This document shows positions 2,496 through 32,055 of a stretch of 64,000 bases of DNA, in pieces. Within the stretch, counting starts at the first letter, position 1. Every line of letters starts with the position of its first letter. This DNA is from a virus (taxonomy: Duplodnaviria > Caudoviricetes), in IMG/VR virus record IMGVR_UViG_3300025437_000009, one strand, 5' to 3'. The notes below the pieces were generated by a model. The model was not told where the DNA came from. It did no database searches and was given only the letters and a program-made list of their open reading frames with translations. The position numbers and the translations under genes were made by a program.

Positions 2496-2524
2496 ATTAT
2501 ACACTAGTTATAGTTTAAAGTCAA
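2496..2524 (-). promoter_or_regulatory. sigma70-type promoter TTGACT-17-TATAAT
   Basis: Near-consensus hexamers with exact 17-nt spacing. Confidence 0.8.
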
Positions 2525-2552
2525 AAAAATCCCCGAGTATTTCTACCCGGGG
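2523..2552 (-). terminator. intrinsic terminator
   Basis: CCCCGGG-tagaaata-CTCGGGG followed by ATTTTTTT. Confidence 0.8.
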
Positions 2553-2606
2553 CAAACCGGTCTTTAAACCGGCTGTAATTCAGGAGCTAGAGTGAATTAC
2601 AGTACA
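2523..2606 (-). ncRNA. candidate late small RNA (two hairpins plus terminator)
   Basis: CTAAATA at 2611-2617, 10-bp hairpin CTGTAATTCA/TGAATTACAG, CCGGT/ACCGG hairpin, then the terminator. Confidence 0.4.
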
Positions 2607-2644
2607 CTAGTATTTAGGCCAGTTTGCTCTGACCTAAAAATTTC

Positions 2645-3691
2645 TTAAGCCGTTTTCATACAAGTAACTTGAGCCATAGCCTTCCATTTAAGTGGGAAAC
2701 TCTTACGCAAATCTGCTACCTTAATTGCCATACGCAACGACATTTCACGGAACTTGTTTTTATTCTCTTCCAAAAACTCAATGATTTCGTCTTGTACTGC
2801 TTGCTCAAAATCATACTCAGCAAACAACTCACCATCTTTGGCAATTTGTTTAATACGGAGTACTTTATCACGCATAGTATCAAGTGTCAAGTCCAAGTAG
2901 TGGCAACGACTCTGTAGTGCATCCAGGTGATCACGCAACTTCTGTGATTTCATTTGATCAAACTTAAGGTTAGTAATAAAGATTACAGAGCCATTGAAGT
3001 TGAAGCTATCTGGAACGCCTTCACGACGCAACATATTACTGTCTGACAACCAACTAATCTTACGCTTCTTACCAGAGTCCAGAGCACCCTTCAGCAGGTT
3101 AAGTGCAACGTCATCAACAAGAATTGAGTCACAGTCGTCAAATACTAATACGCAATTTGAATCTGAATACTTGTAAAGTGTAGTATACAAACCTAATGCA
3201 GTAGCAGAACCTTTAACAACTTCAGCACGTAAACGCTTACCAGAAACCATGTCGAACAAACAGGCCTTCTCAACAATACGTTCCACACCAAAGGACTTAC
3301 CAACTCCTGGGGGACCTGATACAATCATTGCACGGATGTCGCCGTTAGTAGCGGCAGTAGTCATCTCGTCCAAAATTTCAAAACGCTGACGAATACGTTC
3401 AATCACTTCTTCATCAGATTCTTGTGCTAGTTCTAATGCCTGAGTTTCAGCGACAGGTTGATTACCTGCATCAACAAACTCTTGCTCTGATACGAACTCA
3501 TAGTCACTCATTGAGTCAACCTTAACACGAATGTCTTCTGGGAACCCAGGAAAACGTCCGCCATTTTTAACAGTGACATAAGCACCTTTGGCAGTGGTTT
3601 TAAACTGCTCAACTAATTGAAAAATCTCACCGCTGACTTCTTTGTTGCGATAAGCACCACTTTTGATACGAATAAAAGATACGTTTGACAT
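2645..3691 (-). CDS. AAA+ family ATPase
   Basis: Walker A GPPGVGKS, Walker B VLVFDD. RBS AGGAG. Confidence 0.8.
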   Translation of the reverse strand: MSNVSFIRIKSGAYRNKEVSGEIFQLVEQFKTTAKGAYVTVKNGGRFPGFPEDIRVKVDSMSDYEFVSEQEFVDAGNQPVAETQALELAQESDEEVIERIRQRFEILDEMTTAATNGDIRAMIVSGPPGVGKSFGVERIVEKACLFDMVSGKRLRAEVVKGSATALGLYTTLYKYSDSNCVLVFDDCDSILVDDVALNLLKGALDSGKKRKISWLSDSNMLRREGVPDSFNFNGSVIFITNLKFDQMKSQKLRDHLDALQSRCHYLDLTLDTMRDKVLRIKQIAKDGELFAEYDFEQAVQDEIIEFLEENKNKFREMSLRMAIKVADLRKSFPLKWKAMAQVTCMKTA

Positions 3692-3721
3692 ACTAGCTCC
3701 TTCTTTATTAATAATACAACT

Positions 3722-3750
3722 ATTATACTATTTTGGCAATTATGGGTCAA
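3722..3750 (-). promoter_or_regulatory. sigma70-type promoter with AATTGCCAAAAT spacer motif
   Basis: TTGACC-cataattgccaaaatag-TATAAT (17 nt). Confidence 0.8.
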
Positions 3751-4072: not shown

Positions 4073-4101
4073 AGTATAGCATTTTGGCAATTTGGGCACA
4101 A
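4073..4101 (-). promoter_or_regulatory. sigma70-type promoter with spacer motif
   Basis: TTGTGC-ccaaattgccaaaatgc-TATACT (17 nt). Confidence 0.7.
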
Positions 4102-4325: not shown

Positions 4326-4790
4326 TTAGTTAAGTGAATCAAAATACTTGCTTTCTAATACCATTTGACGCTGTTTGATATTATCGATCAAATATAAACT
4401 TTCGTACATTTGTTGAGTATCTACTCCGTGTTCTTGATAACCCTGCATTAACATTTCTAAATACCCATCATTTGGAAATTCATCAATATTTTTGCCGGCC
4501 ATATAATAGGTCATACATTTAACTGATTGACCATTATGGAAAACATTAACCATTTTCTTTAAATAATATGTAGGATAACCTTCTAGGGCATCTAAGGCCA
4601 ATTCACAGTCAGGAGTAATTTCCCACAGGACTCCTTGAGTGGCAAATTCAGGATTTTCGATTATGTCTGCGTGACGAGCAAAACGAAATTCATGATTATA
4701 TAAAACCGCTTTGCCTAAACTTTTGGCCTGCGGGCATCGGATGGCCATTTGGCCTAAATTGGTATTCATACCATATGCAAAATATTTCAT
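4326..4790 (-). CDS. gamma-glutamylcyclotransferase (AIG2-like) family protein
   Basis: N-terminal YFAYGMN and LDALEGYP motifs. Start moved to MKYFAYG. Confidence 0.8.
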   Translation of the reverse strand: MKYFAYGMNTNLGQMAIRCPQAKSLGKAVLYNHEFRFARHADIIENPEFATQGVLWEITPDCELALDALEGYPTYYLKKMVNVFHNGQSVKCMTYYMAGKNIDEFPNDGYLEMLMQGYQEHGVDTQQMYESLYLIDNIKQRQMVLESKYFDSLN

Positions 4791-4796
4791 ACTAAG

Positions 4797-4825
4797 AGTA
4801 TAGCATATTGGCAATTTATGGTCAA
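4797..4825 (-). promoter_or_regulatory. sigma70-type promoter with spacer motif
   Basis: TTGACC-ataaattgccaatatgc-TATACT (17 nt). Confidence 0.8.
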
Positions 4826-5212: not shown

Positions 5213-5253
5213 AAACCCGCCAAAGTGTGCATTGTTAAGAGGCATGGCGGGTA
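5213..5253 (-). terminator. probable terminator after groEL
   Basis: ACCCGCCA...TGGCGGGTTT hairpin with a short T tract. Confidence 0.5.
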
Positions 5254-5273: not shown

Positions 5274-7198
<1,925 letters not shown>

Positions 7199-20765: not shown

Positions 20766-21307
20766 TATTCGCTTAATATATTTCCAAAATCGTATTGTAT
20801 TCTAAGTCCGAGGTATTCTTGTATGCCACTACCATTGGTATTTTTCCAGGTATTGAGTAAACCGCAGGCACTCCATTTAGCAGTTTCATCACCAATCTTA
20901 CGGCAGGCTTCGCCGTACCAAAAATCTTTCATTTGGCTAAATGCTACACCTCTATCATTTACGTTATAATAATGGTTGGCTAAAGTCCACCCTACGTGAG
21001 TTGCCCAAAGATCGTTGTGCCAGAATTTCCAATCTAATACTGCGGCTTCAGACCAAAGTTCGGGAGTAGTATATTTTCCATTTATCCAGGTGTTTTGATC
21101 TCGGTAACTATTTCTATAAACTCGAGCACCAACAGAAACGTTGTCGATAAATTCATAGTTTAATGCAAGACCTGGATTAAAGTCATTTGCTTTATAATTG
21201 TTTTCTAGGTGCACACCCGCAACACCAATTTCTGCCCAAACATCACCTTGCTCTGCATAAGCTATCGGCGATGCAAGTAAAGCCAATACCAAAATAATTT
21301 TTTTCAC
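20765..21307 (-). CDS. secreted/outer-membrane beta-barrel-like protein
   Basis: Signal peptide (M)KKIILVLALLASPIAYA. Alternating aromatic strands FNPGLALNYEF and LGLRIQYDF. Confidence 0.55.
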   Translation of the reverse strand: MKKIILVLALLASPIAYAEQGDVWAEIGVAGVHLENNYKANDFNPGLALNYEFIDNVSVGARVYRNSYRDQNTWINGKYTTPELWSEAAVLDWKFWHNDLWATHVGWTLANHYYNVNDRGVAFSQMKDFWYGEACRKIGDETAKWSACGLLNTWKNTNGSGIQEYLGLRIQYDFGNILSE

Positions 21308-32026: not shown

Positions 32027-32055
32027 AGTATAGCATTTTGGCAATTAAAGGACAA
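32027..32055 (-). promoter_or_regulatory. sigma70-type promoter with spacer motif
   Basis: TTGTCC-tttaattgccaaaatgc-TATACT (17 nt). Confidence 0.7.

Follow-up and report, generated by a model that had tools for sequence, protein, structure and literature searches.

Why should a hairpin at the 3' end of a phage gene display in its loop a sequence that exactly complements the ribosome-binding site (RBS) of the same gene, and through which RNA might such a loop act? The question is raised by a 64,000-nt stretch of Caudoviricetes DNA from a large uncultivated phage (IMG/VR record IMGVR_UViG_3300025437_000009), which is the DNA analysed here and is referred to as the window. An earlier note on this DNA had described the hairpin and proposed that its loop RNA, either as a late antisense RNA or as part of a long-range 3'UTR-RBS contact, shuts off early genes. 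Judging from the sequences of the window and its relatives, we consider it probable that the hairpin acts from the 3'UTR as an anti-RBS element and represses translation of the message that carries it, in cis or as a 3'-end fragment.

Architecture of the ATPase transcription unit

The minus strand is the coding strand of every gene near the anti-RBS hairpin, and the features of this unit all lie on it. The gene in question (2645-3691) encodes an AAA-type P-loop ATPase of 348 aa (PHROG 1250), for whose function searches of PDB and NCBIfam returned P-loop similarity only. A consensus scan placed a sigma70-type promoter (TTGACC, 17-nt spacer, TATAAT; 11/12 matches) at 3722-3750, which predicts a transcript start near 3715 and a 5'UTR of about 24 nt ending in AAGGAGCTAGT-ATG. 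By direct reading, the Shine-Dalgarno (SD) sequence and spacer make up the string AGGAGCTAG (3693-3701), which ends 1 nt before the ATG at 3691-3689. The promoter is one member of a family that shares the spacer motif ATTGCCAA(A/T)AT (families D3/D7), with sites at 3722-3750, 4073-4101, 4797-4825 and 32027-32055, all on the minus strand.

The 122 nt after the ATPase stop codon fold into four hairpins, with a minimum free energy of -47.3 kcal/mol (z = -6.15 relative to shuffled sequences). The first of these (2613-2638, 10 bp) was found by folding and, from a comparison of flanks, is not conserved in relatives. The second is the anti-RBS hairpin (2573-2602), recognized by direct reading, by folding and by a covariance model; its arms, CTGTAATTCA (2602-2593) and TGAATTACAG (2582-2573), form a perfect 10-bp stem that closes a 10-nt loop, CTCTAGCTCC. 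The anti-RBS string, CTAGCTCCT (2590-2582), is fully complementary to AGGAGCTAG (3701-3693). A small third hairpin, CCGGTT/GACCGG (2557-2572), again found by folding, is variable or absent in relatives. The fourth is an intrinsic terminator (2523-2552) whose layout is kept in relatives, a 9-bp GC-rich stem (2552-2531) being followed by a U-run; this last hairpin alone combines a GC-rich stem-loop with a U-run, and the anti-RBS hairpin does not. Reading of the sequence thus confirmed the features that the earlier note had listed, namely a CTAAATA motif (2617-2611), the 10-bp hairpin, the small hairpin after it and the terminator.

The U-run of the terminator overlaps the -35 element of the next sigma70-type promoter (TTGACT, 17-nt spacer, TATAAT; 2524-2496), which drives a 395-aa gene that is leaderless and has its ATG at 2489. 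This promoter is the boundary of the unit and not a part of the anti-RBS element. Leaderless early genes, whose ATG follows the -10 element (TATAAT or TATACT) of a sigma70-type promoter by 6-7 nt, occur at 2489-2524 and at 4790-4825 (both minus strand), and the leaderless arrangement of the 395-aa gene is kept in dozens of relatives.

Specificity of the match between loop and RBS

In the window, the match between loop and RBS exceeds chance. The 9-mer AGGAGCTAG is present once per strand of the 64 kb, as the RBS itself and as the complement of the loop, where 0.16 copies per strand would be expected. The duplex between loop and RBS has a predicted energy of -17.1 kcal/mol, the best among 67 start regions (the runner-up reaches -12.5), and a GGAGC SD precedes just two of the 67 called minus-strand genes, those for the ATPase and for a 98-aa protein immediately upstream of it. 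The hairpin is likewise unique: its covariance model (R1), which is too narrow for distant members and was used for copy number alone, gave a single coding-strand match in the window, at 48.5 bits, and its only other match there was the reverse complement of the hairpin itself. In a 100%-complete relative of 356,865 bp the same model again found one copy of the element, and the corresponding string of that genome, AGGAGCTAA, was found only at the RBS and in the loop.

Searches against Rfam 15 returned, at the element, only a sub-threshold anti-hemB match at the terminator, whose 22.2 bits fall short of the gathering score of 49.5, and the element of a relative gave no match. By these searches, the anti-RBS element appears to lie outside all described RNA families.

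Relatives and their common layout

A DNA search against 50,697 phage records gave no match and so, with nothing similar in the cultured-phage collection, relatives were reached through the ATPase protein, hundreds of whose relatives, 64-94% identical to it, are encoded on IMG/VR contigs that reach 374 kb in length. Our sample comprised 199 IMG/VR loci with 141 distinct ATPase genes, all from uncultivated phages, and a downstream terminator was present in 120. The recurrent layout consists of the last stop codon of the unit, a displayed GCTCC (in a hairpin, or in single strand beside one), a short U-rich linker, a GC-rich terminator and the TTGACT of the next promoter. In several relatives an A/U-rich flank (the stop codon followed by GTTTTAC) lies 5' of the hairpin and a U-rich linker precedes the terminator. 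Among downstream GCTCC sites on the coding strand, 78/168 lay in a hairpin loop, the stem having at least 6 bp and the hairpin being followed by a T-run; in three control regions or strands the equivalent counts were 3/84, 9/164 and 17/307.

About a fifth of the loci have no element within 4 kb. In eleven loci without a detectable element over this distance, the C that follows GGAG was lost in eight (six have GGAGT, L033 has GGAAG and L165 has GGAC). No complement of the RBS was found after the ATPase gene in the cultured homologues VAP7 and phiA8-29 (Ackermannviridae) and KM16 (T4-like). The cultured jumbo Pseudomonas phage PA5oct (L081) has an ATPase homologue that is 40% identical. At L081:3643-3690, the RBS spacer AGTAGCAT has an 8-nt complement, ATGCTACT, in a hairpin 20 nt past the stop codon, which may be due to chance; RNA-seq data exist for this phage.

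The stem of the hairpin was examined in 12 co-linear members, while statistics on the loop and RBS were computed in scripts. Within the clade of the window, 94.9% of cells in the stem are paired, compared with 25-37% when the register is slid, and seven of the ten stem pairs show compensatory changes on both sides. Between clades the stems have almost no sequence in common and yet pairing is kept. Alignment of 41 hairpins with MAFFT, followed by RNAalifold, did not yield a consensus structure, owing to misalignment of stems that have no sequence in common.

Covariation of the loop with the RBS

Evidence that the loop follows the RBS came from a test that assumes no motif, in which the 70 nt or less before the first terminator past the ATPase gene were searched for the longest perfect complement to the RBS region (-20 to +3). 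Over 120 distinct loci the mean match was 8.53 nt, compared with 4.83 nt in 2400 control windows drawn from the same strand of the same loci, and a perfect complement of at least 8 nt was present in 75% of loci but in 1.0% of control windows. The matched RBS and tail strings took 37 distinct forms. These include (RBS with tail) AGGAGCTAG with CTAGCTCCT in the window, AGGAGCTAA with TTAGCTCCT in L003 and L004, AGGAGCCAACC with GGTTGGCTCCT in L052, CGGAGCAA with TTGCTCCG in L055, TAGGAGCTAGA with TCTAGCTCCTA in L024, AAACAGGAGC with GCTCCTGTTT in L063 and TTCTGGAGC with GCTCCAGAA in L170.

This result bears on the possibility that we are looking at an ordinary stabilizing hairpin before a terminator, or at the SD of a tiny ORF on the opposite strand, with the match to the RBS arising by chance. 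Hairpins before terminators are common, and in the window a plus-strand AGGAGC is followed by GTG and a frame of 18 codons. The difference between 1% and 75% speaks against a chance match. As for the opposite-strand ORF, in 74 of 100 distinct hairpins no start codon is found 4-10 nt past the GGAG of the opposite strand, and we rejected this reading on that basis; most of the others open frames of 3-28 codons. Taken together, an ordinary hairpin or a mini-ORF is scarcely credible as the explanation.

Both the core and the flanks of the match show compensated forms. Core pairs (RBS/tail) are GGAGC/GCTCC, GGGGC/GCCCC and GGAGT/ACTCC, while the flanks occur as the haplotypes TAG/CTA, TAA/TTA, TGA/TCA and CAA(CC)/(GG)TTG. 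Seven loci (the clade of L116) have a GGGGC SD, with the RBS GGGCTAGAAA and the loop TTTCTAGCCC; L202 keeps a related form, GGGC/GCCC, in which one more position shows a compensated change (GGGCTAGTAA with TTACTAGCCC); and L167 and L172 combine a GGAGT SD with ACTCC. Across 63 unique combinations of RBS and loop, cognate pairs form on average 8.70 contiguous Watson-Crick bp as opposed to 7.13 bp when shuffled, a value reached in none of 20000 shuffles. Position +1 is Watson-Crick in 50/63 combinations where 29 are expected, through T:A, C:G and A:T pairs, position +3 in 44/63 (25 expected), and all of +1 to +3 match in 32/63 (8.7 expected). The relatedness of the loci is a caveat on these counts: when changes were placed on the ATPase tree, there were about two independent co-changes at +1 and about four at +3, all in the same direction, with single-site sign tests giving p values of approximately 0.1-0.5. 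Furthermore, one large clade keeps a fixed loop, TTTTGWTAGCTCCTTTT, while its RBS drifts in the 3' flank with no compensating change; only 7-9 bp form there, through the core and the A/U flanks.

The earlier note had asked that the complementarity persist in relatives that keep the hairpin; it does, and it covaries, so that this preset test favored the idea of contact between loop and RBS. Its claim that the loop exactly complements the SD and spacer of the ATPase gene accordingly stands, with the added observations that the 9-mer is unique and that the match is conserved and covaries in relatives. We take the pattern to indicate that complementarity to the SD region of the ATPase gene is kept by selection.

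Complementarity on one strand is equivalent to an inverted repeat in duplex DNA, and one could suppose that two protein-binding or recombination sites flank the ATPase gene with no pairing of RNA. A protein site would be conserved, however, and not swapped for 37 different matched strings. In addition, the downstream copy is exposed in every case, in a loop or in single strand beside a covarying stem; it adjoins a terminator on the transcribed strand, and its distance from the upstream copy varies from 1.1 to 4.6 kb. An explanation at the level of DNA is therefore very improbable, and we return to the reading in which RNA pairs with RNA.

Probable location of the element on the ATPase message

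If the loop acts as RNA, the next issue is which transcript carries it. In the window and in relatives the element is located at the first terminator past the ATPase gene, after the last stop codon, such that the anti-SD and the SD it matches belong to one transcription unit, with the anti-SD in its 3'UTR. This also holds where the two are far apart: 39 loci have other small genes, up to 3.5 kb in all, between the ATPase gene and the element, often overlapping the ATPase stop codon as TAATG, and the spacing from RBS to element ranges from 1.1 to 4.6 kb across loci. No terminator-like site was found between the ATPase gene and the element in any of these 39 loci. The long-range 3'UTR-RBS contact that the earlier note gave as one option fits this anatomy.

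The other option in the earlier note was a late sRNA of its own, with CTAAATA as the promoter of an RNA of approximately 83 nt that starts at the hairpin and acts in trans to shut off early genes. The motif is situated 8 nt before the hairpin in the window, and TAAATA-like motifs precede the holin gene in two relatives, which makes this type of motif plausible for the phage group. It may be real in these phages but is not a conserved part of the anti-RBS element. Of 50 distinct relatives, just one has TAAATA in the 70 nt that precede the hairpin, and the closest relative (94% identity) lacks it. Moreover, the window contains 15 copies of CTAAATA where 16 are expected, so the motif carries no statistical weight. 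A consensus scan detected no sigma70-like site between 2644 and 2603, and a conserved promoter of its own directly upstream, as expected of an independent sRNA gene, was not found. In many relatives the hairpin begins 10-25 nt past the stop codon, too short a distance to accommodate an intergenic promoter, and the element was never encountered apart from the 3' end of the ATPase unit. A separate late transcript is thus decidedly unlikely, and we continue with an element that is part of the ATPase message.

Two further features were seen in the same part of the relatives' genomes. Between the ATPase stop codon and the hairpin, several lineages (L035, L042, L050, L074, L077 and others) have an inserted mini-ORF that is hydrophobic, runs to about 30 codons and overlaps that stop codon as TAATG or TGATG. 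A second conserved element of about 50 nt (CCCCTGC.GTGTGCGTAA..GGCAATGTCAATAAG..CC..CGATAA) is found at L013:5026-5080, directly past the ATPase stop codon in L017, L018, L029, L051, L066, L069 and L076, and just upstream of the hairpin in L024. It is absent from the window and had no match in Rfam.

Targets of the loop

The earlier note named two candidate targets, the RBS of the ATPase gene and the AGGAGC in the RBS of the 98-aa gene (4043-3747). Covariation gives strong support for the former, the RBS of the sigma70-driven gene, and weaker support for the latter, whose AGGAGC is indeed present (4053-4048, minus strand) and could form 6 bp with the loop. GGAG is followed by C in 76/77 scored ATPase RBSs (99%). 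Among GGAG SDs, the share with GGAGC is 66% within 1.5 kb upstream of the ATPase gene and 12-27% further upstream, between the ATPase gene and the element, or beyond the element. Upstream genes form 6.86 bp with their cognate loop as compared with 6.51 bp in shuffled combinations, a level reached in 8/5000 shuffles. Since they pair less well with the loop than the ATPase RBS does, the ATPase message is the main partner, and the 98-aa gene is a plausible secondary target.

Matches outside the early unit are also seen. In the complete relative G001, AGGAGCTAG precedes the ATG of three further genes (L207:2056-2502 and L208:2147-2491, minus strand; L209:61-339, plus strand), which encode a GTA_holin_3TM holin and two small proteins. 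In relative G003, where the loop is GGTTGGCTCCT, the holin RBS is AAAGGAAACTC and the tag is absent. The link between holin and loop is therefore not conserved, and we do not claim a wider regulon that includes lysis genes or control of the holin.

Several other observations were made in the window. The Rfam abiF RNA (RF03085) matched at 5215-5251 on the minus strand with 49.6 bits (gathering score 37; E = 4e-7), just upstream of a 100-aa gene (5171-4869) and beside a GroEL-like gene (5274-6893). Two 11-nt complements link the regions upstream of doubtful GTG-start ORFs (near 21307 and 20592, minus strand) with downstream non-coding DNA at 18810-17140 and 20157-19069.

Proposed mechanism

The anatomy of the tail, the uniqueness of the match, the covariation of the stem and of the loop with the RBS, and the position at the first terminator were all observed directly. 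From these we infer that pairing takes place in vivo, that it represses, and that it does so in cis or in trans. In our working model the early unit to which the ATPase gene belongs would carry in its shared 3'UTR an anti-RBS element, the hairpin, and the exposed loop of this hairpin (GCUCC with lineage-specific flanks) would pair with the SD and spacer of the ATPase mRNA through 9 bp in the window and 6-11 bp in relatives. Such pairing would occlude the ribosome-binding site and thereby reduce translation, and it might lower the stability of the mRNA as well. Because the tail is transcribed last, the element would be made only once the message had been transcribed to its end, and we propose that the outcome is a delayed negative autoregulation.

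Two modes of action can be envisaged. Pairing might occur within the same molecule, or a fragment of about 80 nt comprising the hairpin and terminator might survive decay of the message and act on new messages. We lean slightly toward the trans mode. A point against the model as a whole is that a contact of 6-11 bp that has to span 1.1-4.6 kb may be weak against translating ribosomes.

We have assumed repression, as opposed to stabilization, from the occlusion of the SD. The same contact could instead have a positive role, in which pairing of the 5' and 3' regions shields the message from decay that depends on the 5' end or couples stability to translation. Covariation reveals pairing and not its sign, and there is a documented case, the hbs message of B. 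subtilis, where an interaction between the 5'- and 3'-UTRs controls ribonuclease access (PMC5737220). Here, however, the paired segment consists of the SD itself and the spacer, ending 1 nt short of the start codon, so that binding of the 30S subunit and pairing would be mutually exclusive, and in a systematic test anti-SD-like sequences located far downstream lowered both RNA level and translation (PMC12697547). A protective role is unlikely for these reasons, and repression remains the reading that we favor.

A more far-reaching version of the repression model is that the phages possess a private translation switch made of RNA only. A non-canonical SD tag (GGAGC plus a lineage-specific spacer) would mark the ATPase gene and one to three neighboring early genes, and the loop RNA at the end of the transcript would act as a built-in timer, with ribosomes loading only while the message is being synthesized or until tail fragments accumulate. 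We put this forward as a tentative possibility. If correct, it would constitute a protein-free counterpart of the early shut-off brought about by RegA and RegB in phage T4, with an address that can be re-coded by paired mutations.

Should the basic model hold, large phages would be tuning an early gene through an RNA contact that is encoded in the message itself, and the ATPase, which is conserved from T4-like to jumbo phages, would be marked as a protein whose dose matters. With more than a hundred natural variants, compensatory mutants are already at hand. The model would also yield a compact, re-addressable part for autoregulated expression, consisting of a tagged SD and a hairpin loop of about 30 nt.

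Comparison with known systems

There is precedent in phages for shutting off early-gene translation at the SD or initiation region. In T4 this is done by the RegB endoribonuclease, which cuts GGAG in early messages, and by the translational repressor RegA. These are proteins that act on many messages, whereas the element described here would be an RNA that acts on one main message and one or two neighbors. The hok mRNA of plasmid R1 is closer in form, as its 3' end pairs with its own 5' region to keep the message translationally inert until 3' trimming activates the toxin message. The phage element would resemble hok in that the 3' end of a message pairs with its own 5' region, but the hok contact does not lie directly on the SD.

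With its A/U-rich flank (in many relatives), U-rich linker and terminator with a U-tail, the phage tail also has an anatomy that we take to recall Hfq-type sRNA modules. OppZ and CarZ of Vibrio cholerae are autoregulatory sRNAs derived from 3'UTRs; they are products of RNase E and bound by Hfq, and OppZ triggers Rho termination (PMC7398697). The phage element shares with them a place at the 3' end of an operon, the use of the operon's terminator, complementarity to an initiation region in its own operon and, as proposed above for the trans mode, feedback on the same transcript. It differs in having no sequence relationship to them (no Rfam match), in carrying its seed in a loop and in having the first cistron, not an internal one, as its main target.

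The nearest parallel for action in cis is icaR of Staphylococcus aureus, where an anti-SD motif (UCCCCUG) in a 3'UTR of about 390 nt pairs with the SD of the same message and blocks the initiation complex, with cleavage by RNase III documented in one genus (PMC3868564). In both cases one gene has one tail whose anti-SD is complementary to its own SD. The phage seed, however, is presented by the loop of a hairpin that immediately precedes the terminator. It covers a gene-specific spacer in addition to the SD and tolerates up to 3.5 kb of inserted genes; the phage case is based on covariation and that of icaR on experiment. Gill et al. (2025) found that pyrimidine-rich, anti-SD-like 8-mers located hundreds of nt from an RBS pair with it in vivo and lower translation and stability, and that such sequences are deleterious and depleted from genes (PMC12697547). 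A distant anti-SD-like sequence that pairs with an RBS is common to their study and to our model, but the phage sequence appears to be positively maintained, is displayed in a loop and co-evolves with a private variant of the SD.

A full-text literature search of incomplete coverage found no phage example of a 3'UTR anti-SD regulator, and none of the known examples that it did find was backed by deep covariation. The phage element would work in the manner of these known regulators, and what sets it apart is the depth of its natural covariation and its private SD tag.
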